DNA from: Nitrospirota bacterium
GTDB lineage: Bacteria; Nitrospirota; Nitrospiria; Nitrospirales; Nitrospiraceae
Length of the DNA stretch: 32,000 nt
NCBI GenBank assembly: GCA_016219645.1
Contig: JACRLR010000012.1
Coordinates: forward strand, 45,220-77,219
Direction: 5' to 3'
The notes under the pieces are model-generated. The model did not search any database, was not told the DNA's origin, and worked only from the letters and a program-made list of their open reading frames with translations. Shown here piece after piece: positions 8,997-31,151 of this stretch. Both the position numbers and the translations under genes were made by a program. Every line of letters starts with the position of its first letter. The first letter of the stretch is position 1.

Positions 8997-9980
8997 ATGT
9001 CTATTAGTTTATCTCGTTGTGTGCGCACGGCCGGATTGGTCGGCGCATTTATGATGACCCCATATCTGGGCATCCATGCAGGTGTGGTGTCGGCAGAGAC
9101 CATCAAAGCGCAACTGGCGTTCGCACCCAATGTTCCTCCTCCCATCAAACGAACCGAGCCCGCCACGGTCCTCGTCAACTTGACATCGGACGAGTGGGTC
9201 GGTCCGCTGAGCGACGATAACAACTATGAGTTCTGGGGTTTTAATAAGCACACCCCAGGACCCATGATCCGTGTCATGTTGGGCGATACGGTTGAAATCC
9301 GCATGAAGAACGATAAGAACAGCAAGGAATCCCACAATATCGACTTCCATGCGATCACGGGGCCAGGCGGCGGGGCGAGCCTGCTCAATAGCGAGCCAGG
9401 GCAAGAAAGCGGGGGAAGGTTTAAGATGATCATTCCTGGCATCTTTATGTATCACTGCGCCACCGCCTCGCCGTCCATTCCCGAGCACGTGTCGAATGGC
9501 ATGTACGGCACGATCGTCGTCGAGCCGGTGGGTGGGTTGAAGCCTGTCGACAGGGAATATCAGCTCACGCAAAGCGAGTTTTACACGAAAGAGGGTGCTG
9601 AGAAGGGCGAGACGATGGAATTTTCGTACGAAGCTGGGTTAGATGAGCGTCCTTCCCATGTGGTCTATAACGGCCATAAGACTGCGCTGGTCAAGAACCC
9701 CCTCAAAGCCAAGGCGGGGGAAACCGTTCGGATTTTCTTCACCAACGTAGGACCCAACTTTGTCGACTCTTTTCAGATCCTCGAGCAGCCGTTCGACAGG
9801 GTCTACACCGAGGGTTCTTTGAGCGCACCACCGGCGGAAAATGTCAAGGTGACCAAGGTTCCTACTGGTGGCGCGGTGATGGTCGAGTTTAAAGTCAAGA
9901 CGGCCGGCACCTATACCCTCGTTGACCCAGTGGGCAATCGAAAGGACCTCGGCGCCATGGGTCTGCTGAAGGTAGAGTAG
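8997..9980 (+). CDS. NirK-like two-domain cupredoxin protein, paralog 1 (domain-I T1Cu and T2Cu ligands intact; domain-II His residues missing)
   Basis: Signal peptide ..GVVSA|ETI. NirK signature SHNIDFHAITGPGGG (H113, D116, H118), MYHCATASPSIPEHVSNGMYG (H153, C154, H164, M169). In the second domain, FQILE and LVDPVG replace the PHLIG and VNHNL motifs of classical NirK. Confidence 0.8.
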   Translation: MSISLSRCVRTAGLVGAFMMTPYLGIHAGVVSAETIKAQLAFAPNVPPPIKRTEPATVLVNLTSDEWVGPLSDDNNYEFWGFNKHTPGPMIRVMLGDTVEIRMKNDKNSKESHNIDFHAITGPGGGASLLNSEPGQESGGRFKMIIPGIFMYHCATASPSIPEHVSNGMYGTIVVEPVGGLKPVDREYQLTQSEFYTKEGAEKGETMEFSYEAGLDERPSHVVYNGHKTALVKNPLKAKAGETVRIFFTNVGPNFVDSFQILEQPFDRVYTEGSLSAPPAENVKVTKVPTGGAVMVEFKVKTAGTYTLVDPVGNRKDLGAMGLLKVE

Positions 9981-10035
9981 AGGATCCAATTAACGAGGCC
10001 ATCTACGAGAGTTCTCAAAAATTAAAGGAGGCGTC

Positions 10036-11040
10036 ATGCCTAAGAGTTTCTTACACAACATGCGTCATGCCGGGTTGATCAGCGCCTTGGTCATGGCTCC
10101 GTGTCTCGCCATCAATGCAGGCGTGGTGTCCGCGGAGACCATCCAGGCCCAACTCCTGAAGGCACCCAATGTTCCCGCTCCCATCACGCGAACCCAGCCC
10201 GCCACCGTCGTGGTCAACCTGGAAGCATCCGAGTGGGTCGGTCTGATCAGCGATGATAATAGGTATGAGTTCTGGGGGATCAATGGCATGGTGCCAGCGC
10301 CCATGATCCGCGTCATGGTGGGCGATACGGTTGAAGTCAATTTCAAGAACAAGAAGGACAGCAAGGAGAGTCACAATCTTGACTTCGGCAAGGCGACCGA
10401 CGGAGCCGCCCTGGTCACTGCGGAGCCTGGAAAGGAAGCCAAGCTATCATTTAAGGCCACCAAACAAGGTCTCTTTATCTATCAGTCCTCCACTGCAGCG
10501 CCATATAACATTCGACACTTGTTGAGTGGGATGTACGGCTTGATCCTCGTTGAGCCGGTTGGTGGGCTGAAGCCTGTCGAAAAAGAATTCTATGTCATGC
10601 AGAGCGAATTTTACATGAAGGACGGCAAGAAGAACGACACCTTGGATTTCTCGATCGACAAGGTCAAGGAAAAGGATGCGTCGTATATCGTGCATAACGG
10701 CCACATGACCGCGTTGGTCAAGGTTCCACTCCGCAGTAGAGTGGGAGAGACCACTCGATGGTTCTACGGCAACGCAGGAGTCAACTTTGAATCTTCGTGG
10801 CATGTCATCGGAGAAATGTTAGACCGGGTATGGCCGGCGGGTGACATGTCAAAACCGCCGCTTGAATCTATCCAAAGCACCCTGGTGGGGACGGGTGAAG
10901 CGACCATCGGAGAATTCAAAGGCGAAATGCCCGGCACGTTCGTGTCGGTTGACCACTCGCTCTTCCGCACCGAAAAGGGCGCCCTTGGCCTGCTGAAGAT
11001 AGATGGTCCGACTAATCCTAGCCTCTTCAAAGGTCTGTAG
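10036..11040 (+). CDS. NirK-like two-domain cupredoxin protein, paralog 2 (domain-I Cu ligands degenerate; domain-II His residues retained)
   Basis: Homologous to paralog 1 over its whole length, with the same RBS context (AAAGGAGGCGTCATG) and signal peptide. It reads SHNLDFGKATDG (His->Gly) and IYQSS (His-Cys->Gln-Ser) but retains SSWHVIGE and SVDHSLF in domain II. Confidence 0.75.
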   Translation: MPKSFLHNMRHAGLISALVMAPCLAINAGVVSAETIQAQLLKAPNVPAPITRTQPATVVVNLEASEWVGLISDDNRYEFWGINGMVPAPMIRVMVGDTVEVNFKNKKDSKESHNLDFGKATDGAALVTAEPGKEAKLSFKATKQGLFIYQSSTAAPYNIRHLLSGMYGLILVEPVGGLKPVEKEFYVMQSEFYMKDGKKNDTLDFSIDKVKEKDASYIVHNGHMTALVKVPLRSRVGETTRWFYGNAGVNFESSWHVIGEMLDRVWPAGDMSKPPLESIQSTLVGTGEATIGEFKGEMPGTFVSVDHSLFRTEKGALGLLKIDGPTNPSLFKGL

Positions 11041-11138
11041 TAATCTGCAGGGAGAGGATTAGGATAGTGCCAAGACACAGCTGATTCACTAGCAGTGTGG
11101 GCTCAGCGCAGCACGGTCGTACCAGAGTAACATAAGAT

Positions 11139-11174
11139 GGGGAGGGAGAGGATGAGCCTCTTCCTCCCCGTTTT
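11139..11174 (+). terminator. Rho-independent terminator of the cytochrome c/NirK-like operon
   Basis: GGGGAGGGAGAGG (11139-11151) pairs with CCTCTTCCTCCCC (11157-11169) as a 13-bp stem with one G-U, a 5-nt loop ATGAG, followed by GTTTT. Confidence 0.7.
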
Positions 11175-11317
11175 ACGATTGGGAGAAGAGGGTATAGCAT
11201 CTCGTGTGCAACCGGTTGTACATAACAACGGCGTGCTCGCTTCCATCACCCCCCTACAGCCACTCGGATGGCCTTGCTCAGGCAGACCCGTAGAAGGGAT
11301 CGGTCCTGCAGAAGGTA

Positions 11318-11347
11318 TTGACAAAGCAAAGAGTCTCCTGCTATTAA
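11318..11347 (+). promoter_or_regulatory. Candidate sigma70 promoter upstream of the DUF1566 gene
   Basis: TTGACA (11318-11323), 18-nt spacer, TATTAA (11342-11347). About 225 nt upstream of the ATG at 11573. Confidence 0.3.
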
Positions 11348-11572
11348 GCATACGCTTTACTTGTCATGAATCTGAGAAGATGTCCTACGCCGATTCTCGA
11401 TTTTCAACCATCGGCAATCAGGCAGGAGGGTCAGCCATTTCTATCTCAGCGGCTTCCGACTTGCGATCAATCATTTTCCCGAACGTAAACAGCATCCCTC
11501 ACTGCGTGGTCTGATGTCATCAATCACGCGGCAGTCGGGCGGTGCAACAATATCACATACAGGAGGGTCGAC

Positions 11573-12121
11573 ATGAAAAGCAGAAGAAGTAAATGGTTGG
11601 GCGGCATCGGCGCTGCGGGGCTGGTTGTCGGATGCCTGGGGCTGGCTGGTTTTGGTTTAGGAACAACAGCTTCTGACGCGCAAGCCGGTCCCTTGGCGGA
11701 ATTCCAAGGCGGCAAGGCGGTGGGGTTGTCGGCGAGGTTTACCATTTTGGATTCATTTAATAAAGAGGCGGCGCTGGACAATGAGACCGGATTGGTGTGG
11801 GAAATGATACCGGAGCGAGCGATGACGGTGTGGAAAAATGCCGCCGGTGTCTGTGCAAAAAAGACCGTCGGTGGCAAGAAGGACTGGCGCTTGCCATCAC
11901 TCAAAGAATTGGAGACCCTGGCGGATCACACGATCTATCCTCCCCCCGCCCTCGTATCCGGCCATCCATTTTCCAACATCGAGCTTCATGGTTATTGGAC
12001 GTCAACGGAGCACGAAGAGTATCCCTTCAGCGCCTGGGACGTGAACTTCGACTATGGCATCATCGGCAACGATTTTAAGATCAACAAAAACTTCGTCTGG
12101 TGCGTGCGCGATAACAGTTAG
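11573..12121 (+). CDS. Secreted DUF1566 (Lcl C-terminal domain) protein
   Basis: RBS AGGAGGG and a signal-like N-terminus. Core motif ETGLVWEM....MTW..A...C......GGKKDWRLPSLKELETL....... and the C-terminal ..FVWCVR are typical of DUF1566. Confidence 0.75.
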   Translation: MKSRRSKWLGGIGAAGLVVGCLGLAGFGLGTTASDAQAGPLAEFQGGKAVGLSARFTILDSFNKEAALDNETGLVWEMIPERAMTVWKNAAGVCAKKTVGGKKDWRLPSLKELETLADHTIYPPPALVSGHPFSNIELHGYWTSTEHEEYPFSAWDVNFDYGIIGNDFKINKNFVWCVRDNS

Positions 12122-12155
12122 GATCAGAAGTGCCTCTTAGGTCATTGGCTGAGTT

Positions 12156-12177
12156 GGGGGTGGCGCAAGCCACCCCC
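12156..12177. terminator. GC-rich hairpin between convergent genes (possible bidirectional terminator)
   Basis: GGGGGTGGC (12156-12164), loop GCAA, GCCACCCCC (12169-12177). This perfect 9-bp stem lies between the 3' ends of the DUF1566 gene (+) and the membrane protein gene (-). U-tracts are weak. Confidence 0.45.
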
Positions 12178-12320
12178 TGCTTGTCCTACCGTAAATCAAG
12201 CACATCGATACCACTGAAAATCTTGTTAGGGCGGTGCTCCACCACCACTCTAGAGCGTCGTCACAATGTAATCCTGTGGTTGGAGAATTGGGATGATCCT
12301 TGTTCAGGTGAGGCGGGGAA

Positions 12321-13244
12321 TTAGGTTTTGTCGAGGGGCTCAACGGCAAGATCGGGATTCTTCAACGACGTGCTGATGGCCTGCGAGGTGCGCTGTATCT
12401 GCGTTTGAATATCCTCTCGTGCATGCTCAGGAAGACCGAACAAGCCCGTCCAACGGCTAACCGTTGAGGGAGAAGAGCCCTCAGTTTGACGCCAGGCATT
12501 GACATATCTCAGGCCACTCAGGACGAGGGCTGCCCCGCCCATGGCCACCGAATCGACGATGCAATACCAGAACGTCACCCCGCTTGGAGGATTGGCTTGA
12601 GATAGGCCAAGCACAGGATCTATGGCCGCCCATTTCCACGCGCCCACGGCTGTCCCAATTAATTCCAGCCAGGTTGTAATAAAGAACGCCGCGAGATAGA
12701 CCATGGGTGAACGGCCTAGGAACAGAAACCCCAAGAAAATGGCGAACATTAATGCGCCCAGTGCGTCGGCCTGTTCCGGCAACCCACTTATCCCCCAAGC
12801 TGCCCATGCACCGCACACGATGATCACAAAGGCGGTAATCCCTCTCGCATATCGCTGAAAGAGCCCGGATCGGGCCATGGCAATGGCTGTGAGATACACC
12901 ATTCCATGACCAGGCGGCACATAGGCCGGCACATTCTCAAACCGATAGGTGTATCCCCCCATATAGATCGACGCAAAATGTTCGCCCCATGTGGCAAAGG
13001 CCACTGCAACGAGGACTTGGATTCTCGCTTCTCCTTTTTCGCCGAGAAGCATCACCAAGAGAGAGACAAACGCGATACCCCCCAGGACATACTGCCGTCC
13101 CAGGCTCGCGTCTATTTCTAACGTCAAACAGACGGCGACAGCAAAAAACGTATAGGCCGCAATGACGTAATCCCTGGTCCTGTGGGGATGCGCAACACCC
13201 AGTTGCGGGAAATGGCGTAGCATGGTCGACTGCAGTACATTCAT
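12321..13244 (-). CDS. Hypothetical polytopic inner-membrane protein
   Basis: 307-aa ORF with about 7-8 hydrophobic helices and a hydrophilic C-terminal tail. No family recognised. Confidence 0.6.
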   Translation of the reverse strand: MNVLQSTMLRHFPQLGVAHPHRTRDYVIAAYTFFAVAVCLTLEIDASLGRQYVLGGIAFVSLLVMLLGEKGEARIQVLVAVAFATWGEHFASIYMGGYTYRFENVPAYVPPGHGMVYLTAIAMARSGLFQRYARGITAFVIIVCGAWAAWGISGLPEQADALGALMFAIFLGFLFLGRSPMVYLAAFFITTWLELIGTAVGAWKWAAIDPVLGLSQANPPSGVTFWYCIVDSVAMGGAALVLSGLRYVNAWRQTEGSSPSTVSRWTGLFGLPEHAREDIQTQIQRTSQAISTSLKNPDLAVEPLDKT

Positions 13245-13498
13245 GAATCGTAACTCCAGATCCCCTTGAGCCTGCCACTCACACCGGTTCCTTGGAAGTA
13301 TCTCCTCATGTTTCAGATCTTAGATGGGTTCGAGCAGGGGCTCGCTTGTGTCAGAAATTTAACGTGTCACCGGTCCTGCGTCAACTCAACAAGCGCAATT
13401 TTCTGGCTTGTCGAGAAAACTGTTTGTTGAGTTCTGAGATCAGACGTCGTTGGGGTTCAACCTAATGGGCAGGAGTAACCGAATTGTTCAGCGCACCT

Positions 13499-13531
13499 GA
13501 TGCCGGCATAGTTTCTCACTATGCCGGCATC
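13499..13531 (-). terminator. Perfect 13-bp stem-loop immediately 3' of cycB (operon-end hairpin; no clear U-tract)
   Basis: GATGCCGGCATAG (13499-13511), loop TTTCTCA, CTATGCCGGCATC (13519-13531). It lies 8 nt downstream of the cycB stop on the minus strand. Confidence 0.5.
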
Positions 13532-13538
13532 AAAGGTG

Positions 13539-14135
13539 TCAGTCGTCTTCTTTCTTCTCTTTGGGCTCTGCTTTGGGCACATTCTTGCCCTGAGCTAAAC
13601 TGGCATTGAGATCGGTCTCCGGGACTTTTTTATGCACCAGGTTCTGATGGCAATCGATACAGGTCGCCCCCTCGGTCTCCATCTTCTTGTGCGCTGCTTT
13701 TGCCGATGCTCCTGGTGGCTTGGTATTCTTGTGACAGGCCCGACAGGTCAAACTGTCCCAGCCCTTGAGTTTCATACGCGCCCTGTAGGCTGCTTCCGGC
13801 CTACGTTCGTTGAATTTCTCGATCGTCGAGTAATCGACGGTGAACTCGTCGATCAAGAACGGCAGTCCATCCACCACATGAGTCCACACAGCCAGATGGA
13901 AGTTTTTCAAGCCCTGCGGAACGTGACAGTCCTTGCAGCCAGGGTCCGCCCCGAGCGCACCCCAGTGCGATGACTTTTTCAGCTCCTCGTAGGGGTAGGT
14001 CTCGGAATGGCAGCTCACGCAGAACTCGGTTCTGGATATCGCCGCTTCGCCGCCGAATACCACGGCAATCGTCCCAACGGCAATCACTGCGCCAAGAGCT
14101 AAGGCGCCGACTGTCACAATGCCCCTCTCTGACAT
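13539..14135 (-). CDS. cycB: Tetraheme membrane-anchored cytochrome cM552 (NapC/NirT family), quinone reductase of the HAO pathway
   Basis: N-terminal TM helix and four CXXCH motifs (CVSCH, CKDCH, CRACH, CIDCH). The start overlaps the cycA stop (TAATG). Position matches the canonical haoA-haoB-cycA-cycB order. Confidence 0.9.
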   Translation of the reverse strand: MSERGIVTVGALALGAVIAVGTIAVVFGGEAAISRTEFCVSCHSETYPYEELKKSSHWGALGADPGCKDCHVPQGLKNFHLAVWTHVVDGLPFLIDEFTVDYSTIEKFNERRPEAAYRARMKLKGWDSLTCRACHKNTKPPGASAKAAHKKMETEGATCIDCHQNLVHKKVPETDLNASLAQGKNVPKAEPKEKKEDD

Positions 14136-14878
14136 TACTCCTCCTTGCCTATCTCCGCCGGCTTCGCATCCTTCTGGAATTCCTCATGGAACTTCGGGGT
14201 CGGCGGACCTTCGAACGTTCCAGATAGTTTGAAATGCTCATGCATGGCTTTGTTGTTGCGCACGGACTTTTCAAAGTCAAACGCATACTTTTTATCCACG
14301 GTAGGGGTGAACGGCGTATAGGGCTTCTTGACACCCTTCCACGGTGAGCCTTCGTAGTTCAGATGACAGGCACTGCACTTCTCGATGAATTCAAAATCCT
14401 GTCCTGCTTCCGCGAGGGTTTCCCGCGGCGTAACCTTTTTCGACTTTTCAAAGGCCTCGCCGGCCTTGCGGTGAATCTTCCGATAATCCGTGCCAGCTCC
14501 ATGGCAGGATTCGCAACCGACACCGACAAGGAATTTGTCGGGGTCCGAAATTTCATACCCTCCCTCAGACCCGAACCCTGTCACATGACAGCCGATACAA
14601 TCCTTGTCCTTTGTGTAGTCCTTCTTCGGGTCGAGTTTCGCCTTGACCATGGCTGCATTCTTTTCCTTATTCCTGTCGGCTTTGAGCGAGTCGACTGCTT
14701 TCGCGTGGGCGGTCTTTATCCATGAGTCTGCCTCGCTCTTGTGGCAATTACTGCATTTCTTCCGACCTTCAAACGGTGTCTCAGCGGAAGCAGTTCCAGC
14801 AAAGACCATAAACAACACAGCAGCCGCTAGGGCAAATAACATGGGATGCTTCGGATACTTCACAGGGCCTCCTTTCAT
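14135..14878 (-). CDS. cycA: Tetraheme cytochrome c554
   Basis: Signal peptide (..FAGTASA|ET) and four CXXCH motifs (CSNCH, CIGCH, CESCH, CSACH). Size and synteny are as in ammonia oxidisers. The true start may be the GTG at 14863, just after AAGGAGG. Confidence 0.9.
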   Translation of the reverse strand: MKGGPVKYPKHPMLFALAAAVLFMVFAGTASAETPFEGRKKCSNCHKSEADSWIKTAHAKAVDSLKADRNKEKNAAMVKAKLDPKKDYTKDKDCIGCHVTGFGSEGGYEISDPDKFLVGVGCESCHGAGTDYRKIHRKAGEAFEKSKKVTPRETLAEAGQDFEFIEKCSACHLNYEGSPWKGVKKPYTPFTPTVDKKYAFDFEKSVRNNKAMHEHFKLSGTFEGPPTPKFHEEFQKDAKPAEIGKEE

Positions 14879-14984
14879 CAGAACAACTATTAGTGGTCGC
14901 GCTTAAAAAATCGAATGTGCGTTAGTCTATCGTGTGTGTGCAAGATTTACAATAACGAGCCTTCTACTTCGGCCACTCAAAGAA

Positions 14985-16013
14985 TCAATTATTCGATGGC
15001 TGTGCAGATGGTATCTTATACACCAAATAACCTCCCTCTTTATAGACCAGCTGGACCGGTTGGAAATCCAGAATGAGCGAGGTCGTCATGGGCAACATCT
15101 GCGCGAGCAGCGTCTTTGTGCTTTTTTCATCTGTGAGGAAGTACGCGCGGAAGATATTGTCTGAAAAACCATGCACAGTGTGTCCGGCATACTTGTTGTC
15201 CCCTTCCCAACGCTTGATCATTATATTGACTCCATGAACATCGGTGCTCCCTTTCACGGGAAAGTCCTTATAGGCAACACCTATACGATCCGGACGCATC
15301 AGCCCAAGCTTATAGATGTCTGCAATGTGAACCACGACATACCCTTCGCGTCCGCCGACCAGCTCACGCAGGATCTCGACACCTTCTTTGGGCTCTGAGG
15401 CTAACGCATCCGCAAATCGTTGGAATTTACGCTCCTCTTCCTCTGTCGGTGGAGCCGCCCAGAAGTCTCGTTCATACTTCGCGATGGATTCCATTCTTGG
15501 CTTCCAGACCATCGGCATAATGAGAGGTTCGTTCAGCTGAGTGGTGAAGACCGGATCTAATCCGGTGAGAAGTTGGATCTGCCGCGAGGTGTCCCACCAG
15601 GCCAGAATAGCCGCATCCTTCGGCATATGCTTGGAAATTGCCGGCGCCAAGATGGACAGCTCGGAGAGCTTACTATCAAGAAAGATCATTGGTTCGCCAA
15701 CGTGATTTTCCCATCCGATCATCACGGGCTTCGAATTTCCTCGGCGTGCAATATAGGCAGCGGCTATCGCTTCTTCCATCCCCTCGACGTGGATTTCTTG
15801 CTTTGTGAGCTTAAGATCCGGCCAAGCCCCTAATTCTAGCTTGGGAAACTTTTCTATCCCGCCTTCTTCCACTAACCGATATTGATACGGTGCCGGACCC
15901 GGATCGAACCATAAAAATGCAAACCAACCAAGCAATAAAAAACCTCCCGCCGCCAGGATGACTCCTAGTGACGGGAGGATTTTACTACTCGGCCGCGTCA
16001 GCGTTGCTTCCAT
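14985..16013 (-). CDS. haoB: HaoB, membrane-anchored protein encoded downstream of haoA
   Basis: 342-aa ORF starting 21 nt after the haoA stop, with a single N-terminal TM helix (LGVILAAGGFLLLGWFAFLWF), no heme motifs, and a position between haoA and cycA. Assigned mainly by synteny and architecture. Confidence 0.8.
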   Translation of the reverse strand: MEATLTRPSSKILPSLGVILAAGGFLLLGWFAFLWFDPGPAPYQYRLVEEGGIEKFPKLELGAWPDLKLTKQEIHVEGMEEAIAAAYIARRGNSKPVMIGWENHVGEPMIFLDSKLSELSILAPAISKHMPKDAAILAWWDTSRQIQLLTGLDPVFTTQLNEPLIMPMVWKPRMESIAKYERDFWAAPPTEEEERKFQRFADALASEPKEGVEILRELVGGREGYVVVHIADIYKLGLMRPDRIGVAYKDFPVKGSTDVHGVNIMIKRWEGDNKYAGHTVHGFSDNIFRAYFLTDEKSTKTLLAQMLPMTTSLILDFQPVQLVYKEGGYLVYKIPSAQPSNN

Positions 16014-16033
16014 TGTCTGCGCGGCGCCCTATT

Positions 16034-17746
16034 TCACTTCTGGTTCTTCTTACGTCGGCTCCATCCGGCCAGCGCCAGCGTTCCGGTCAGCAGCATGCCG
16101 CCGCCCAGACTGCCCAGCGTCAGCTTGCCGTCGGTGCTGTCGAAATCCAGGAGCCGGCTCGTCTTGCTCTTTTCTTCGAGCTTGGTGACCCGTTCCATCA
16201 ACAGCATCCGGTCCTTCAGCTTGGTGTCCTCATCCATGATTTCGACATAGGCCCGGTTCATCGCGGCCCAGCCGACCGTATAGGTGAACCCCGGATATTG
16301 GTGCGCCATACTCACGTGCAGTTGCACCAGATGGTCTTCCGCCATCTCGAAGAGTTTCAGCTCGATCGCGGTCGGGCTGTTGTTCTTGGACCAGTAGATC
16401 TGCCAGAACTGGTCGAACAGCGCCTTCGCTGGGGCCGGCGGGGCCGGCCGGTTGGTCCTCTGCCCGGTCAGGAGGCGCGCCTCGAACTGTTTATGCACGA
16501 CGTTGTGCGCCTCGTCGTATTTATCCAGGCCGGCGCTCGTGCCGTTATCGATAAACTCCAAGTAGGCGCGGGCGAAGGTCTCGGAATGGCACGTGGTGCA
16601 GGTCTTGACCCACGCCTCGTACCGTTGCATACCCCAGTTGTCAAATACAGCCTCGCGAATCCCTGGCACGAAGGGATAATTCGCCCAGCGAACCTTACGC
16701 ACCGTGTTGTGGCTGAATTTACCCTGGTACTCCATATGACAGCTCTGGCAGGTCGGGAACTTCTGCCCGCCCTTAGCAACTGCATCCTTGAGCTGTAAAT
16801 CGAAATTCCATCTACCCTTAGAAGCCTGGTACCCCAGCCCGTGCTGTGACCCGTTGTAGGCTTCCCAGTTGTTGTGATCGGCCCCGCTGTGGCAGGTACC
16901 GCAGGCTTCAGGCTTGCGGGAGTCGGCCACCGAGAATTCGTGCCTGGTATGGCAGTTATCGCACTTGTTCTGATTCGTATGGCATAGGGAGCAGCCTTCA
17001 GCAATCTCGCGCTGCGACATGCCCGCCCAGATATCGGTCTCGACGTTAGCGCGCCAATCCAGCACGTGCGACGGACGACCCCGTGGCCACTGGTTCTTCG
17101 GCCATAAGATCGTGTCGCGCTCGGACTCGCGCTCGGCATATTCCATCAGATGGCAGTTGCCGCACACATCGGAAGTAGGCATCTTCAGGTCGACCCGGTG
17201 ATCGGCCTTCTTCGTCGTGTTGATGTCGACATGGCAATCGATGCAGCTGACTTCCTTCAAGTTCTCTTTTGCACCAAGCTTGCCGATCGAGCGCAGGTTC
17301 GCCTCGATTTCCTCCAACTTCGCTTTCTTATAGAAGGTGTCGTCTTTGGGGGTCAGCTTGCGAATCTTGTCAAGATTGGCGTGGGCACTCTTTTTCCAAG
17401 TTATCACCCACCCAGGCGACTCATCGGTGTGGCATTTCACGCACTGCTCGCGCGTCGCCACTTCCTTCACCGATTGCGGCGGCTTGTAGAAGGTCGCGGG
17501 ATCGAGGTACTTGGTGATGGGAATCGGCTCCCAATACTGGCCGTACTGCCCCTTCCCCGCTCCTTTGCCTGGATCCTTGTAGCGCTTCGTCAACGCCTCA
17601 TGAAACTCCTTGGGGCTGGCGGACCGATCAATGTTCAGGGCCTCATAGGTCTCCTTGGGAACGCTGGGGAAGTTGGCCTGCGCGGTCCCTGCGAGCATCA
17701 CCCCGCACACCATGAGACAACATCTCAGCCAGAATTTATTCACCAT
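16034..17746 (-). CDS. haoA: Octaheme hydroxylamine oxidoreductase (HAO), oxidative type with the P460 cross-link tyrosine
   Basis: Eight CXXCH motifs (CVKCH, CIDCH, CGNCH, CSLCH, CDNCH, CGTCH, CQSCH, CTTCH). It has the [19 protein letters not shown] block matching the cross-linking Tyr region of N. europaea HAO (..[19 protein letters not shown], from memory) and a C-terminal TM helix. The start at 17746 follows GGAGGGAGGG; the longest ORF starts at 17776. Confidence 0.95.
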
Positions 17747-17857
17747 GCTAACCCTCCCTCCATTCATAAAGTACAACGGTCTATTATTGGTGCGGTTTTT
17801 CAGATTTTTACATGCATTTATATCTACATTAGCGCTGGCTAATCACAGCACCGCGCA

Positions 17858-17886
17858 TGTATATCGCAGGACATAATCCATGTCAA
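17858..17886 (-). promoter_or_regulatory. Candidate sigma70 promoter of haoA
   Basis: On the minus strand: TTGACA (17886-17881), 17-nt spacer, TATACA (17863-17858), preceded by an A/T-rich UP-like tract (GATTTTTTTATCTGAATGCCACTTAATATC). About 100 nt upstream of the haoA start. Confidence 0.5.
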
Positions 17887-17954
17887 GATATTAAGTGGCA
17901 TTCAGATAAAAAAATCGCCGGTCACGCATTTTTCATAAATTTTTGCAAATACAG

Positions 17955-17981
17955 TGCCATCAACACCGGGGAATGATGGCA
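17955..17981 (-). terminator. Weak candidate hairpin after the stand-alone CcmI-domain gene
   Basis: TGCCATCA (17955-17962) pairs with TGATGGCA (17974-17981), with T-rich sequence downstream on the minus strand. The 8-bp stem and 11-nt loop make this marginal. Confidence 0.3.
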
Positions 17982-17990
17982 GTCCACAGG

Positions 17991-18455
17991 CTAGGGTCTT
18001 TCACGATCGATAACAATGGCAACCCCCTCCGCTCCAGGGTTCACCGGCTGACTCACTCCCTCCAAGTCTCCACTCTGAGGCATCGCTTGGCCGGACTTCG
18101 ATAGACGAGCCACAATCACGACCGTGCCGACATCAGAAAGTTTTCTGGAAGGCATCATACTGACTGAGTCATCGAGCCGAAAGTTGAAGGGCAAATCCTT
18201 TTTCGTCGCCCGTACAATCGCGACAGGCATCGGTGGGCCATTCGTTTCACGCGCAAACACAAACAATGTGTCTGTCGCGGCTCCTTTGTTGGCCAGGCCT
18301 GGCGCGATCGTCACCTTGCCACTGATGGCAAGCGACGATCCAGCCTGTCCAGTCGGCTTCGCAGGAGCTGTCGGTTCCGTATATCCAGATCCTGTCGAGG
18401 CAAGCAACAATCCGCAGACTAGTAGACCACACCTTATCCAACGTCTGTCGACCAT
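17991..18455 (-). CDS. Secreted stand-alone paralog of the CcmI C-terminal domain
   Basis: ATG at 18455 follows AGGGAG (8-nt spacing); the track start at 18461 is a TTG. It has a signal peptide (RRWIRCGLLVCGLLLASTGSG). The mature part aligns along its length with each repeat at the CcmI C-terminus: ISGKVTIAPGLA....TDTLFVFARETNGPPMPVAIVRATKKDLPFNFRLDDS.SMMPSRKLS....VVIVARLSKSGQAMPQSGDLEG.SQPV. Confidence 0.7.
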   Translation of the reverse strand: MVDRRWIRCGLLVCGLLLASTGSGYTEPTAPAKPTGQAGSSLAISGKVTIAPGLANKGAATDTLFVFARETNGPPMPVAIVRATKKDLPFNFRLDDSVSMMPSRKLSDVGTVVIVARLSKSGQAMPQSGDLEGVSQPVNPGAEGVAIVIDRERP

Positions 18456-18525
18456 GTGCAATACTCCCTGTTTGTGAAAAGACTCTTCGTTATCTACGAA
18501 TTTATCGCGGAGGACACAGCGCGCA

Positions 18526-18555
18526 TATATCTCAGCATGGGTTAGGCGATGTCAA
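18526..18555 (-). promoter_or_regulatory. Promoter-like element upstream of the stand-alone CcmI-domain gene (similar to the haoA promoter region)
   Basis: On the minus strand: TTGACA (18555-18550), 18-nt spacer, GATATA (18531-18526). The surrounding ~66 nt share ordered blocks with the haoA upstream region. Confidence 0.3.
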
Positions 18556-18633
18556 GGGAGGAGTGGACTGCTCTCCGAACCTCCGTGAGGGGTTAGGAAC
18601 TCAACAGGCCAGAGACTTGTCGACTTTCGAGTG

Positions 18634-20313
18634 CTAGGGCCGTTCATGATCGATCACGACTGTGATCCCGTCCCCCCCGGCTTGAATCGGCTGACTAGTC
18701 CCCTCCAGATCTCCGCTCTGCGGCATGGCCTGGCCTGATTTCGATAGACGAGCCACGATCACCACCGGTCCTGTACTCGACAATTTTCTGGACGGCATCG
18801 GACTGGTTGAGTCATCGAGTTGAAACGTAAAGGGTAAATCTCGCTTCGTTGCCCGCACGATTGCCACCGGCATCGGAGGCCCATTCATCTCGCGGGCAAA
18901 GACAAACAGCGTGTCGGCGGCGGATCCCTTGCCGGCTAAACTGGGTGCGAGAGTCACCGTGCCTCTGATCGCACGTGGTTGTCCGGCCTGCCCCATTGGT
19001 TGAGCCGGCGCTGCTGGTTCCGTACCCATCCGCTCACGGTCGATCAGGACCGTGATCCCGTCTCCCCCGGCTTGAATCGGCTGACTGGTCCCCTCCAGAT
19101 CTCCGCTCTGCGGCATGGCCTGGCCTGATTTCGATAGACGAGCCACAATCACCACCGGTCCAGCGCCGGACAGTTTTCTCGACGGCATCGGGCTGGTCGA
19201 GTCATCAAGCTGGAACGTGAAGGGCAAATCCTTCTTGCTCGCCCGCACGATTGCCACCGGCATCGGGGGCCCGTTCACTTCGCGAGCAAAGACAAACAGC
19301 GTGTCCGTCTCCGAGACCTTGCCGGCCAGACCGGGCGCCAGGGTCACCGTGCCTCTGATCGCCCGTGATTGTCCCGCCTGCCTCACTGATTGAGCCGGCG
19401 CTGCTGGTTCCCTGTCCATTCGTGCCATCTCTCGGCCACCGCCAAGTCGGCTTTTGGCCTCGTCGATCGCAACGACTAATTGCTGTGTCATTTCCGGATC
19501 GATGTCCTCAGGAAGATTCGCGCGAGCGAGTTCCCAATCCTTCACCGCCTGGGCAAAATTATCTCGATTGAATGCCACGGTCCCTGCCAACATCAGCGCC
19601 TTGACATTGCGTGGATCGATCTTCAGCGCCCGTTGGATCAACGCTTCAGGCCTCCCCTCCAATTTACGACCATGGAGCACCCCCATGGCATCGGCATAAT
19701 CGGCGAGTAACTGGGCATCGTCAGGGATCAGGTTGGTGGCTTGCTCATAGGCCAATGCTGCTTCTGCGTAGCGACCGACCCCCATATACGAACGCCCGAG
19801 CAATGCCCATCCAGCGCCATCACCGGGGTTCTGCTCCATCTTTTGTTTGAGCCGCTCGATCAGTGGGTCGAGTCCGGCAGCGAAGGGATCCCCCTCTTGT
19901 GATCCTCCCTGTGCAGACAACGAAGGGGCAGGTGACTCTGTTATCGCGAGTGGATTTCCAAGTTGCCAGTAGAGCAACCCGCAGGCCGTCGGGATGATGA
20001 TGGCAAGCGCGAACGCCACCGGCTTGCCATGCATCTGCTGCCGGGGCTTTTTGGTGGTCGTCTCCGTGGTACCGGTCTCTTCAAGCAGCCGGCGTTCGAG
20101 CTCCTGTCGCGCTTGCTGATAGAGTTCATCGGTGAGGACAGAATTTGCCCGATCCTGTTCCAGCTCCGCAAACTGTTGCCGGAAGATCGACAGGGTCTTC
20201 TCTTCTTCTCTCGCTGGTGCAACAGCCGCTGTGCGCTTCATCAGGGGCCACAACAGGAGACCCAGGACGAGCAGAGTCATCGTCGATGCAATGAGCCAGA
20301 ACATGATGGTCAA
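18634..20313 (-). CDS. ccmI: Cytochrome c maturation protein CcmI (CycH) with a duplicated C-terminal domain
   Basis: Two N-terminal TM helices flank a charged cytoplasmic loop (..EEEKTLSIFRQQFAELEQDR..), followed by TPR-like repeats (WALLGRSYMGVGRYAEAALAYEQA..) and two tandem 130-aa copies of the C-terminal domain. The track start is the TTG at 20313 overlapping the ccmH stop; the ATG at 20304 (MFWLIAS..) is an alternative. Confidence 0.85.
   Translation of the reverse strand: MTIMFWLIASTMTLLVLGLLLWPLMKRTAAVAPAREEEKTLSIFRQQFAELEQDRANSVLTDELYQQARQELERRLLEETGTTETTTKKPRQQMHGKPVAFALAIIIPTACGLLYWQLGNPLAITESPAPSLSAQGGSQEGDPFAAGLDPLIERLKQKMEQNPGDGAGWALLGRSYMGVGRYAEAALAYEQATNLIPDDAQLLADYADAMGVLHGRKLEGRPEALIQRALKIDPRNVKALMLAGTVAFNRDNFAQAVKDWELARANLPEDIDPEMTQQLVVAIDEAKSRLGGGREMARMDREPAAPAQSVRQAGQSRAIRGTVTLAPGLAGKVSETDTLFVFAREVNGPPMPVAIVRASKKDLPFTFQLDDSTSPMPSRKLSGAGPVVIVARLSKSGQAMPQSGDLEGTSQPIQAGGDGITVLIDRERMGTEPAAPAQPMGQAGQPRAIRGTVTLAPSLAGKGSAADTLFVFAREMNGPPMPVAIVRATKRDLPFTFQLDDSTSPMPSRKLSSTGPVVIVARLSKSGQAMPQSGDLEGTSQPIQAGGDGITVVIDHERP
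18637..19419 (-). repeat. In-frame tandem duplication (period 390 bp, 2 copies) inside ccmI
   Basis: Copy 1 spans 19030-19419 and copy 2 spans 18637-19029. They share long identical runs, for example the 59-nt GTCCCCTCCAGATCTCCGCTCTGCGGCATGGCCTGGCCTGATTTCGATAGACGAGCCAC present in both. The GTGATCCCG anchor occurs at 18662 and 19052. Confidence 0.9.
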
Positions 20314-20777
20314 GGGCGATTCGCTCCCTCGGAGAGCAGTTGTGCGACACGGTTGTGCTCTGCTTCCGTCAGTGCCACGGCGGCAAGCTTCTTTTGTCTC
20401 TTGCGGAGCGCAAGAACCAAGGCCGTCGCGCCTCCAATCAGCAGGAGGAACGGTCCTACCCAGAGCAATGTGGTCGTGGTCTTGAGAGGAGGACGATAGA
20501 GGACAAAATCTCCGTAGCGGCTGACGAGAAAGTCGATGATCTCCTTGTCGCTCATATTTTTGACAATCATCTCGCGAACTTCCCGGCGCAAGTCTTCGGC
20601 TAACGGCGCATTCGAATCAGCCAGCGTCTGATTCTGGCAGACTAGACAACGCAGCTCTACGGCGAGGGTTTTTAGACGCGCCTCAACCTGCGGGTTCTCA
20701 GCGAGCGGGCTTGCTTCGTAGGCCGCCGCAGCGAGACCGGGGATGAGAAGGATGACCACTAAGTAGAACCACCTCAT
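20310..20777 (-). CDS. ccmH: Cytochrome c maturation thiol-reductase CcmH (CcmL)
   Basis: Signal peptide, the LRCLVCQNQTLADSNAPLA motif (LRCxxCQ), and a C-terminal TM helix. ATGA overlap with ccmG. Confidence 0.9.
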   Translation of the reverse strand: MRWFYLVVILLIPGLAAAAYEASPLAENPQVEARLKTLAVELRCLVCQNQTLADSNAPLAEDLRREVREMIVKNMSDKEIIDFLVSRYGDFVLYRPPLKTTTTLLWVGPFLLLIGGATALVLALRKRQKKLAAVALTEAEHNRVAQLLSEGANRP

Positions 20778-21301
20778 TGGTTCTGCAGCTCCCTGACCAA
20801 TGGCAAGATTTTCGTTTGCAAGACATCCTCGCGCAGCGGACCGATCTGTTTGTAGCGGATGACACCCGCCTTGTCGATCACATAGGTCTCCGGCACACCA
20901 TAGACGCCATAATCAATGCCGACGCGCCCCGATTCGTCCACGGCAACAAGCGGATAGGGATTGCCCCACTCTTTCAACCAGGCCAGCGCTTCTTCTCTAC
21001 GGTCCTTATAGTCCATACCATAGATGGGCACCTCCCCGGATTTCGCGAGATGGATGAGGACAGGGTGCTCCTCCTTGCAGCCACCGCACCAGGAAGCCCA
21101 GAAGTTAAGCAGCCAAACCTGGCCTCTCAGATCAGTCGATGAAAGCACCTTGTCCTTTTCGTGGAGCTGCGGAAGCGAGAAATTCGGCGCCGGCTTCCCC
21201 ACTAAGGGAGACGGCAATTCACGCGGGTTGAGCGTCAGGCCGACACCAAGAAACGCGAGCACGACCACAAAGATGCCGAGCGGGATAAGAAACCGACTCA
21301 T
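20774..21301 (-). CDS. ccmG: Thiol:disulfide oxidoreductase CcmG/DsbE
   Basis: N-terminal TM anchor, thioredoxin motif NFWASWCGGCKEEHP, and GVYGVPETYVIDKAGVIRYK. The start at 21301 forms an ATGA overlap with the ccmF stop; the longest ORF extends to 21361. Confidence 0.9.
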   Translation of the reverse strand: MSRFLIPLGIFVVVLAFLGVGLTLNPRELPSPLVGKPAPNFSLPQLHEKDKVLSSTDLRGQVWLLNFWASWCGGCKEEHPVLIHLAKSGEVPIYGMDYKDRREEALAWLKEWGNPYPLVAVDESGRVGIDYGVYGVPETYVIDKAGVIRYKQIGPLREDVLQTKILPLVRELQNQ

Positions 21302-28728: not shown

Positions 28729-29133
28729 ATGGAATCATGGACGATTCCCCCACTCAAGCACCTCGTGGTAGGCGCGGCAGTGGCAATAACGATGTGCGTG
28801 CACGTTGCCCCGGCGCTGGCCCATGCAGCCCTCGTCAAGGCAGAGCCGCCACGTCGGGCCGTCCTCGCCAAGGCCCCGGCTCACGTGCAACTCTGGTTCA
28901 ACGAGGAAATTGAGAGCGCCTATGCGTCGCTCACCGTGCTCGACGCCGGCAAAAACCCTGTTACAGCGGTCAAACCTCAACTTGCATCGAATGACCTGAA
29001 ATCCATTGTCCTGCCGCTGCCTGAGTTGGCGCCTGGGAAGTACTCGGTAAAGTTTCGGGTACTATCCTTGGACGGTCATGTAATTCAGTCATCCTTCGAC
29101 TTCACAGTAAAAGGCAACCTGCACGAGAAATGA
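28729..29133 (+). CDS. copC: Periplasmic copper chaperone CopC (Cu(II)-site-only type)
   Basis: RBS AAGGAGGAGG and signal peptide ..APALA|HAALV, giving a mature N-terminal His. Family pattern P...A.L...P..V.LWFNE.I and ..GKYSVKFRVLSLDGH...S.F.FTV (Asp-x-His of the Cu(II) site). No Met-rich Cu(I) motif. ATGA overlap with copD. Confidence 0.9.
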   Translation: MESWTIPPLKHLVVGAAVAITMCVHVAPALAHAALVKAEPPRRAVLAKAPAHVQLWFNEEIESAYASLTVLDAGKNPVTAVKPQLASNDLKSIVLPLPELAPGKYSVKFRVLSLDGHVIQSSFDFTVKGNLHEK

Positions 29134-31151
29134 TCGAGGTCATCGCAGCGCTTATCCGCTGGCTGGCGCTTGCATCCAACATGATCCTGATCGGCGGCTG
29201 CGTTTTCCTTGCGATCGCCGGGCGTGAGAGAGCCGCTTTCGACAGCCCATGGTTCGCTCGCCTGAAGCGGGCGCTACCGTGGCTCGCGATCACGCTTCTG
29301 CTGGGTCTGCTGGCCTTACTCGCTATTACAACGGCACAGGTCACGGGCAATGTTGAAAGTGCCTGGCACCCCGGAACTTGGCTTGAACTCTTACAGAAAA
29401 CTCGCATAGGCCTCATCTGGACATGGCGCGCAGCCCTTGCGCTTCTTCTGCTCGCTGTCGCCCTCTACGCTCGGCTTTCTTCCAGAACATCCTGGCAGTA
29501 CGCCTTGTGCGCAATCGTCGCTGCGCTCACGCTGGCTGTGGGGTCACTTGCGAGCCACTCTGCAGCCGAAGATCTCTCCGTGTTATCTGTGTTGCCCTAC
29601 ATGCTCCATATCGTGCTGGCAAGCGTCTGGGCCGGAGGATTGCCAGCCTTTCTCACCCTCCTGTTCGCCGCCACAGGAAAACAGCCGGACCGGAAGGCAG
29701 ATCGGTTCGGCATCCAGACCTTAACACGCTTTTCAGTCATGGCATTGCCCGTGATGATCGCGGTGATCGTGACCGGCGTCATCGTAACGTATCGGATGGT
29801 AGATACAAGCTACGCCGCATTAGCCGCAACGAGCTACGGCTGGTTTCTCAATTCAAAACTTGCACTGCTCCTGGCAATTCTCCTCATCGCCGCACGTGCG
29901 CACTTCGTCTGGGTGCCGTTACTCGGCCGGAACGAAGATGTGGCTGATGCAGGTGCGCGGGGACTTCGACGGTGGGTGACCGTCGAAGTCGTGCTTGCGT
30001 CAGCACTGGTGTTGGCAGCGACATTTCTCGCGAGCGCCGTGCCTGCGAAACATGCCGTCATTGAGGACTGGCCCTATCCATTCCGCTTCTCCATTGACGC
30101 CACCTGGGGCGAGTTCAGCGTCATGGTCCGCGTGGGGATAGGAATCGCCCTCCTGTTACTGGCAGGCGGTGCGGTCGCGCTCGGTCGATACAAGCGCTGG
30201 GGGACGAAGTGGCACATTGCCGTCCCATCTGTGCTGGCGGTTTGCGGACTGGCCGTTGCACTCCCCTCCCTTGCCGTTCAGGCCTTTCCAGAAACCTACC
30301 GCAAGACGCCGGTGCCATTCGATGCCATTTCCGTTCACAATGGCGCAACCCTATTCGCCGCAAACTGTGTGCCTTGTCATGGACCCCAGGCCAAGGGCAA
30401 TGGTGTGCTGGCCAAGACATTTGCGAAGAAACCGGTTGATCTGCTGACGGAGCCGCATACTGCGATGCATACCGCAGGCGACTTTTTCCATTGGCTGACT
30501 TACGGAATCCTAGAGTTTGGCATGCCGGCATGGGGCGACAAACTTTCGGAGGAGGATCGCTGGGATCTCGTCAATTTTCTCCATGCGATTTCCCGCGGCT
30601 ATCAAGCTCGTCTCATCAACTTCTACGTCGCTCCCAATCAGCCTTACGTCGTCCCACAGAACTTTTCCTATTCCGCACATGACGGCGCAAGCGGTACCTT
30701 GAAAGACTTTCGTCAGAAAAAATCTGTGTTGCTGACACTATTTTCATGGCCGGATTCACGCGCGAGGCTCGATCAGTTGAAGCAGGCTTACCCCGCACTA
30801 AGCAGCAGCGATACGATCGTGCTGGCGGTGCCCATCAATGACCTTAACCAACAGGATATGGCGGCGATCACCGCAGATCTGCCATTCCCAGTGGTGACTC
30901 AGGGTGCTCCGGAAATTGCACAAAGCTATGCCCTGTTCCGTAGAACCCTGAGTAATCCCGATTTGGCCGGTGAGGGGACAATGCCGAAACACATGGAGTT
31001 TCTGATTGACCGGTACGGTTTTTTGCGGGCGCGGTGGATCCCTGCAGTGGATGGAGCAGGGTGGACCGACAATAACCTATTGATGCAGCAAATTGAGCAG
31101 CTCAATCGGGAAAAAGAGATTCGGCCGCCGCCGGACGACCATGTACATTGA
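29130..31151 (+). CDS. copD: CopD-family membrane protein fused to a periplasmic cytochrome c domain and a Cys-less Sco/TlpA-like thioredoxin-fold domain
   Basis: The N-terminal ~400 aa are polytopic and CopD-like. They are followed by GATLFAANCVPCHGPQAKGNG...FGMPAWGDKLSEEDRWDLVNFL (monoheme cytochrome c). The final part is FRQKKSVLLTLFSWPDSRARLDQL...HMEFLIDRYGFLRARW (Sco/TlpA-like, with WPDSR where a CPDxC/CxxC motif would be). Confidence 0.85.
   Translation: MIEVIAALIRWLALASNMILIGGCVFLAIAGRERAAFDSPWFARLKRALPWLAITLLLGLLALLAITTAQVTGNVESAWHPGTWLELLQKTRIGLIWTWRAALALLLLAVALYARLSSRTSWQYALCAIVAALTLAVGSLASHSAAEDLSVLSVLPYMLHIVLASVWAGGLPAFLTLLFAATGKQPDRKADRFGIQTLTRFSVMALPVMIAVIVTGVIVTYRMVDTSYAALAATSYGWFLNSKLALLLAILLIAARAHFVWVPLLGRNEDVADAGARGLRRWVTVEVVLASALVLAATFLASAVPAKHAVIEDWPYPFRFSIDATWGEFSVMVRVGIGIALLLLAGGAVALGRYKRWGTKWHIAVPSVLAVCGLAVALPSLAVQAFPETYRKTPVPFDAISVHNGATLFAANCVPCHGPQAKGNGVLAKTFAKKPVDLLTEPHTAMHTAGDFFHWLTYGILEFGMPAWGDKLSEEDRWDLVNFLHAISRGYQARLINFYVAPNQPYVVPQNFSYSAHDGASGTLKDFRQKKSVLLTLFSWPDSRARLDQLKQAYPALSSSDTIVLAVPINDLNQQDMAAITADLPFPVVTQGAPEIAQSYALFRRTLSNPDLAGEGTMPKHMEFLIDRYGFLRARWIPAVDGAGWTDNNLLMQQIEQLNREKEIRPPPDDHVH

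Follow-up and report, generated by a model that had tools for sequence, protein, structure and literature searches.

The window analysed here is a 32,000-nucleotide stretch of the Nitrospirota bacterium contig JACRLR010000012.1 (positions 45,220 to 77,219) and carries the ccm and hao gene clusters of a comammox Nitrospira from clade B. The minus-strand gene order, which applies to all ccm and hao features given below, is ccmE-F-G-H, ccmI, a small stand-alone gene, and haoA-haoB-cycA-cycB. The small gene (17991–18455), here called solo, codes for 154 residues comprising a predicted signal peptide, a CcmI-type linker, and a single Ig_CycH domain, the domain that ends CcmI. Sequence comparisons make it very probable that solo is a chimera, in which a hao-type signal peptide, 5' untranslated region (UTR), and promoter-like core were joined to the CcmI linker and Ig_CycH. 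The same linker and domain also occur twice in tandem at the end of CcmI in this window. The explanation that best accounts for the locus as a whole, and that we consider moderately probable, combines two separate duplications with a solo protein that acts in trans and is co-expressed with the hao genes.

Several features of the repeat had been noted in a first-pass annotation made from the sequence alone, which described CcmI as ending in two in-frame tandem modules of about 130 residues. Tandem Repeats Finder agrees, reporting a 390-nt period with 2.0 copies, 86% matches, and no indels at 18650–19411, and a repeat search of the window recovers three in-register copies (17997–18296, 18640–18939, and 19030–19329) at spacings of 643 and 390 nt. 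The first CcmI tail module, I1 (residues 299–428; 19030–19419), and the second, I2 (residues 429–559; 18637–19029), each consist of a Pro/Ala-rich linker followed by Ig_CycH and are 86% identical in DNA and 87% in protein; solo is 73% identical to I1 in protein. The identical 59-nt run to which the annotation pointed is present, is longer than the 52 nt that mark the 99th percentile when the mismatch pattern is permuted, and lies in a sixty-five-base block in which I1 and I2 are 98% identical. The repeated module corresponds to Pfam family PF23892, Ig_CycH, the Ig-like C-terminal domain of CycH/CcmI, which matches CcmI twice (232.9 bits) and solo once (121.9 bits, profile positions 2–108 of 108) at a gathering cut-off of 27 bits. 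The 559-residue CcmI (18634–20313) closes the ccmA-I System I cluster. Its N-terminal membrane domain (19951–20313) matches NCBIfam TIGR03142, cytochro_ccmI, at residues 4–121 (103.3 bits; cut-off 29.3), with hydrophobic segments at residues 1–26 and 96–119 around a charged loop in a hydropathy scan, and its periplasmic tetratricopeptide repeat (TPR) domain (19504–19920) matches Pfam PF23914, TPR_CcmH_CycH, at residues 132–270 (76.8 bits; cut-off 42). Pfam and NCBIfam scans of solo return Ig_CycH alone, with no NCBIfam match and no TPR match. Thus, solo is neither CcmI nor CcmH, despite the label 'CcmH' that JGI attaches to some of its relatives.

The remainder of solo resembles the start of its other neighbor, haoA. 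The predicted signal peptide, MVDRRWIRCGLLVCGLLLASTGSGY (18381–18455), has the n-region MVDRRWIR, a hydrophobic stretch at residues 7–22, and a cleavage region that reads STGSGY/TEP in the window and AYA/EP in relatives. A ribosome-binding site, GGGAG (18464–18468), lies 8 nt 5' of the ATG at 18455 and is kept in relatives, and further upstream is a promoter-like core of candidate sigma-70 type, TTGACA-N18-GATATA, with TG before it and TGCGCGC after it (18519–18555). These elements bear out the earlier description of a third copy, upstream of haoA, with its own ribosome-binding site, signal peptide, and promoter-like element. Comparisons with haoA provide evidence for the source of these parts. 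First, the solo and HaoA leaders are identical at 11 of 22 residues in the window, where solo MVDRRWIRCGLLVCGLLLA aligns with a 19-residue stretch of the HaoA leader, and at 15 of 18 residues in the related locus L008, where an 18-residue solo stretch is nearly identical to HaoA MTNKFWLRCGLVVCGVLL. Because the HaoA leaders of clade-A-type loci also contain the VVCGLLLAA core, haoA appears to be the donor. Second, a DNA profile built from 40 solo-haoA intergenic regions plus the first 60 nt of haoA was used in an nhmmer search of the ccmI-solo intergenic regions. Its matches span the entire region in many genomes, beginning 2–3 nt past the ccmI stop codon, with E-values down to 5e-43; in the more eroded window the profile matches the 5' UTR and leader (E 4.3e-10) and the promoter area (E 2.9e-5). 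The 40-genome profile is required for this comparison, as aligning only the window's own two upstream regions with MAFFT gives a misleading picture. Third, alignment reveals a core common to both upstream regions, consisting of TTGACA, about 18 nt, and (TG)AGATATATGCGCGC; the haoA version reads TTGACA-N15-GATATA followed by CATGCGCG (17853–17886).

The promoter-like core pattern occurs exactly twice in the window, at 17853–17886 and 18519–18555, where none would be expected. In most clade-B loci TTGACA..GATAYA...GCGC likewise has only two occurrences in ~20 kb, one preceding solo and the other preceding haoA, and it keeps both positions even where the hao operon is inverted. Clade-A-type loci also have TTGACA and a TATAT-type -10 element before haoA. 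The core surfaced only by comparative alignment: a generic promoter and terminator scan of the minus strand at 17500–20800, whose -10 rule demands T at position 6, returned nothing. An Rfam scan of the intergenic regions found no RNA family, and the RNA fold z-score was +0.8.

A single event could have produced this arrangement. In the clade-B ancestor, an unequal crossover would have generated one tandem duplication of ~640–700 nt. The duplicated stretch would have begun in the linker that precedes the Ig domain of CcmI, taken in the stop codon of ccmI and all of the spacer between ccmI and haoA, and ended near codon 22 of haoA. Where the two copies meet, the hao promoter, 5' UTR, ribosome-binding site, and signal peptide of the first copy would have become joined in frame to the linker and Ig_CycH of the second. 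The outcome would be a new secreted 154-residue protein with neither membrane anchor nor TPR, and both ccmI and haoA would have remained undamaged. A single duplication fits since the 643-nt spacing of the copies matches the proposed unit and all features are reproduced. Later, in one clade-B sublineage, a second unequal crossover would have doubled the CcmI module through a 390-nt in-frame duplication, tripling it in some genomes, with occasional gene conversion between modules afterwards.

The distribution of the genes among relatives is consistent with this order of events. A scan of one genome per species yielded 79 loci, numbered L001 onward and nearly all from Nitrospira metagenome-assembled genomes (MAGs), to which the window proteins were mapped and in which domains were counted per open reading frame (ORF). 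The loci include RCB as well as CG24_A, CG24_C, and CG24_E, all three placed in comammox clade B by published work. The clade-B order is ccmEFGH, ccmI with one, two, or three modules, solo, and haoAB-cycAB. Solo is present in 44 related clade-B loci and lies directly between ccmI and haoA in 42 of them; the exceptions are L024 and L044, where solo still adjoins ccmI and an inverted hao operon lies downstream. The clade-B CcmI has one module in 14 loci, two in 26 (the window included), three in L011 and L023, and at least three in L002. The 11 clade-A-type loci, among them SG-bin2, ST-bin4, and Ga0074138, which we take to be clade A, lack solo and have haoA immediately after a ccmI with one module. 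Other Nitrospira ccmI paralogues have one module each. A second, orphan ccmI, located away from ccmEFGH, occurs in many Nitrospira, including comammox MAGs with a hao-linked ccmI (L057, 4884–10360; L052, L054–L061, L065, L066, and L071); its N-domain is 54–59% identical to that of the window and it has one Ig_CycH. In L057 it is preceded by two cytochrome-c7-like genes and a 767-residue ORF with no Pfam match. The protein database contains at least 393 solo-related clusters at E ≤ 1e-5, and nearly all of the 120 listed are 139–195 residues long.

Two loci associate solo with the presence of the hao genes. L043 (Nitrospiraceae Baikal-deep-G158, 9107–20390) contains a clade-B-like ccmE-I with a one-module ccmI. 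The next genes, directly after it, code for a multicopper oxidase, a cytochrome c, carbonic anhydrase, transketolase, and TauE, and neither solo nor a hao cluster is found within 10 kb downstream. Its multicopper oxidase and TauE genes are of kinds that also flank the cluster of the window, and the locus fits the reported nitrite-oxidising Nitrospira that retain System I. L063 (Nitrospira sp. CG24C, 10895–11440) exhibits a single ~4.5-kb deletion relative to L010 that joins about codon 123 of solo to the last ~40 codons of cycB, with haoA, haoB, and cycA gone; either strain variation or an assembly join may account for it.

Since copy number in the window is known from the assembly alone, the repeat might in principle be an assembly artefact, and solo might be a decaying, functionless by-product of duplication, for which the less canonical cleavage region of the window copy could be cited. 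Such an account is very hard to sustain. I1 and I2 differ at 14% of positions and share no identical run longer than 59 nt, and the layout occurs in dozens of independent MAGs; the two-module form alone is found in 25 further independently assembled loci, some on contigs of 0.4–2.9 Mb. This divergence, together with recurrence on contigs of up to 2.9 Mb, identifies the layout as a lineage trait rather than an artefact. Decay is contradicted by 45 intact solo ORFs, by the conserved ribosome-binding site and promoter core, and by selection. A comparison of dN/dS (the ratio of nonsynonymous to synonymous substitution rates) among the three copies had been proposed by the first-pass annotation and was made by the Nei-Gojobori method. 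Across genomes, dN/dS is 0.09 for I1 (27 genomes), 0.07 for I2, and 0.12 for solo (45 genomes, intact ORFs), and all three copies are under purifying selection.

The same analysis addresses the age of the duplications. The first-pass annotation held that the tandem copies must be recent or homogenised by recombination, and it viewed the module as the apocytochrome-binding chaperone of System I, multiplied as an adaptation to a hao operon with 16 haem sites. The premises about the locus are sound, in that the ccm and hao clusters are adjacent and the 16 sites are confirmed by CXXCH counts of 8 in HaoA, 4 in c554, and 4 in cM552. The recent age is not borne out for the window, where I1 and I2 differ by a synonymous divergence (dS) of 0.49 (dN/dS 0.14), exceeding the 0.18 that separates I1 from its orthologue in the closest relative, L001; either module differs from solo by a dS of 1.6–1.8. 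In addition, the two-module architecture is common to 26 loci, and in most two-module genomes I1 is closest to I1 of other genomes and I2 to I2. In a neighbor-joining tree, single-module clade-B CcmIs are basal and the solo copies form one clade. The dS values, the position-specific matches, and the tree together place solo in the clade-B ancestor and the internal duplication later, yet still long ago.

Homogenisation, the other half of the earlier claim, is partly upheld by mosaic tracts. The three copies of the window differ from those of L001 by dS values of 0.18 (I1 against I1), 0.55, and 0.06. Segment-wise identities indicate that I2 of L001 was converted by I1 over positions 131–260, and at positions 261–325 all four modules of the window and L001 are 92–98% identical. 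Elsewhere the copies are closer: I1 and I2 of L015 are 99% identical in protein, and P0001, a 258-residue metagenomic C-terminal fragment of CcmI, contains two modules with 100% identity, after which another unit begins and runs out of frame; this indicates a very recent duplication in some population. Because these modules are identical or nearly so, fresh duplication or conversion is still ongoing. P0001 and P0002 were also considered as free two-domain proteins and rejected, as both are C-terminal fragments of multi-module CcmI. The modules of L015 and P0001 are in keeping with the earlier reading of a recent duplication.

Comparisons outside the clade-B loci speak against such an adaptation, and we regard it as unlikely. 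Clade-A-type comammox matures the same set of HAO, c554, and cM552 with one module and no solo. Moreover, a profile search of 1.84 billion representative proteins gave 5678 matches, and among the best 150 of these, 49 have two modules and 6 have three; as the ranking favours multi-module proteins, 55 of 150 should be read as a minimum for occurrence, not as a frequency. The earlier statement that one module normally ends CcmI is therefore correct as a majority rule and fails for these 55 representative clusters. The CcmI N-domains of the multi-module matches are 24–37% identical to that of the window, and module identity within a protein ranges from 35 to 99%. Named holders include uncultured Rhodocyclaceae, Usitatibacter, Thiohalomonadales, and other Gammaproteobacteria. 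Two of these named multi-module ccmI genes were examined in context; both belong to ordinary ccmA-I operons, and neither a neighboring hao nor a free secreted copy is seen. The first-pass annotation had stated that its reading would be weakened if a two-copy CcmI plus a free copy were common in organisms lacking multihaem enzymes, and what was found corresponds to part of this, namely multi-module CcmI in operons without an adjacent hao. For the internal CcmI repeat, nothing specifically supports a link to multihaem clients.

Other proteins and loci from this search are of separate interest. Short non-Nitrospira matches among the best 150 were considered as solo proteins and rejected, being CcmI fragments that start within the TPR or linker. 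Apart from the comammox solo cluster itself, the one exception among the short matches, P0227 (181 residues), consists of apparent CcmI membrane helices fused to one Ig_CycH with no TPR, and may be a TPR-less mini-CcmI, a deletion, or a mis-assembly. A Rhodocyclaceae MAG locus (L080, 1–9641) contains System II genes (ResB, CcsA-like) beside System I genes (ccmD, ccmF, ccmG, ccmH, and a two-module ccmI), next to an MtrC-like multihaem cytochrome.

The preferred explanation, two duplications and a trans-acting solo, implies a specific role for the new protein. Exported by the Sec pathway and transcribed from a hao-type promoter, as its sequence suggests, solo would be produced at the same time as HAO, c554, and cM552. 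Once in the periplasm, it would offer in trans, and at a higher dose, the binding activity that the tethered CcmI tail provides. Extra CcmI modules in cis and solo in trans would then both raise the amount of Ig_CycH available to each CcmFHI haem ligation complex. Candidate partners for Ig_CycH are unfolded apocytochrome segments, CcmE, or CcmH/F. Promoter capture, along with the joint absence of solo and hao in L043, makes a link to multihaem clients plausible for solo. Solo also keeps almost all conserved Ig_CycH residues, including ancestral states common to clade-A-type and orphan Nitrospira CcmI, and P100M and R42L are its only specific changes. A role for solo in maturing the hao-cluster cytochromes is nevertheless a tentative proposal that falls a little short of probable. 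The fuller version, in which solo would be the first trans-acting soluble CcmI tail domain, a periplasmic factor devoted to the maturation of the multihaem cytochromes from the hao cluster that was born in one step by capturing the promoter and signal peptide of its client and is hence co-regulated with it, is possible but rather doubtful.

Alternatively, solo may have left cytochrome maturation altogether and become a partner of mature HAO, c554, or cM552 with a structural or regulatory role, co-expressed through their promoter. The hao-type promoter and leader would serve such a partner equally, as would the joint absence of solo and hao in L043 and their joint deletion in L063, and the dN/dS of solo is slightly higher than the 0.07–0.09 of the CcmI modules. 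Near-complete residue retention with only two fixed solo-specific changes argues instead for an unchanged binding partner, and solo stays beside ccmI in the two loci with an inverted hao operon. We therefore view a change of partner as decidedly unlikely.

Several points count against the favored combination of two duplications and a trans-acting, co-expressed solo. The promoter and signal peptide of solo are predictions from sequence, and monophyly of the solo copies has a bootstrap value of 53% in a 126-column alignment. Adjacency to haoA is not obligatory for solo, as the inverted hao operons of L024 and L044 demonstrate, and CcmI modules have multiplied repeatedly, including in Proteobacteria without an adjacent hao, so that multiplication is not peculiar to hao. 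The apocytochrome binding documented for CcmI, as for NrfG, resides in the TPR domain (PMC3884852; PMC12285233) and not in Ig_CycH, which has no assigned function in any organism; this also argues against the module being the chaperone. For the CcmI tail, the same sources describe no more than an alpha/beta region that follows a disordered linker (PMC3884852; PMC12285233). Structure likewise gives no mechanistic clue, because no solved structure resembles Ig_CycH by sequence or fold. An AlphaFold2 model of solo predicts a seven-strand beta sandwich at residues 44–154, with core pLDDT (predicted local distance difference test) scores mostly above 90, and a disordered leader and linker (residues 1–39); the mature domain has no Cys and no His. 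A sequence search of the PDB with the module profile found no match at E ≤ 1, and a Foldseek search of the PDB with the model found nothing at E ≤ 0.001, the nearest folds being generic beta sandwiches. The best Foldseek match, a type II secretion pilotin (TM-score 0.43/0.55), was above the E-value cut-off and was set aside as offering no functional lead.

The CcmI of the window can be compared with known systems. Like CcmI/CycH of Rhodobacter capsulatus, Pseudomonas aeruginosa, and Bradyrhizobium, a subunit of the CcmFHI haem ligation complex, it has two transmembrane helices, a cytoplasmic loop, a periplasmic TPR, a disordered linker, and an alpha/beta tail, and is encoded by the last ccm gene. 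Unlike those proteins, it has two C-terminal domains rather than one, and solo retains only the linker and last domain. The multi-module CcmI proteins of Proteobacteria share an in-frame multiplied linker and Ig_CycH at the C-terminus, whereas the 24–37% N-domain identity to the window indicates that their duplications were independent. NrfG of Escherichia coli, a stand-alone CcmI paralogue for the pentahaem NrfA, is a precedent for a part of CcmI encoded separately beside its multihaem client. NrfG corresponds to the TPR part, whereas solo is the complementary non-TPR part, with a putative client specificity.

The first-pass annotation regarded a soluble form of this module as not described, which is correct only in part. 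Ig_CycH is a curated Pfam family, and Palomo et al. (bioRxiv 10.1101/138586) noted, in a single sentence, a 'CcmI duplication' unique to clade-B comammox genomes; their extra CcmI-related gene is probably solo. Relative to that one-sentence mention, the present analysis adds that the copy comprises only the C-terminal domain, that it has a hao leader and promoter-like core, and that the CcmI module number varies from one to three. Literature searches found no account of the anatomy or origin of solo. What appears to be new is thus the chimeric, putatively secreted and co-regulated form, with a hao-type promoter-like core, of a known domain in a known gene cluster.

The genes following solo complete the cluster. 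HaoA (16034–17746) has 570 residues from an ATG at 17746 (MVNKFWLRC...), a start chosen by alignment with ~50 homologues; the mechanical ORF call had selected a TTG at 17776. ORFs and protein mapping place haoB, cycA, and cycB after it, at 13539–16013. HaoA of the window is a mosaic. Its first 60 residues are clade-B-like, being 83–87% identical to L009 and L005 versus 62% to the clade-A-type L064, and from about residue 180 to the end it is 90–100% identical to L064, 80–94% to L005, L009, and L012, and 65–87% to other clade-B HaoAs. This pattern suggests inter-clade recombination just downstream of the leader. Two tandem multicopper-oxidase-like genes, coding for 327 and 334 residues, are located downstream of the hao cluster at 8997–11040, and beyond the other side of the ccm cluster a 673-residue ORF (29130–31151) combines CopD, cytochrome c, and AhpC/TSA thiol-redox domains.

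The C-terminal domain of CcmI/CycH is strongly conserved, and a detached, apparently secreted copy under purifying selection implies that it can work without a tether to CcmFHI. As a small soluble protein, solo could be used to find the partner of Ig_CycH. Its origin would also represent a clean case of new gene formation, in which a single tandem duplication supplied a promoter, a ribosome-binding site, an export signal, and a folded domain from parts of two adjacent genes. Finally, solo is a sequence marker that divides clade-B from clade-A comammox and may bear on how each clade builds its ammonia-oxidation machinery.

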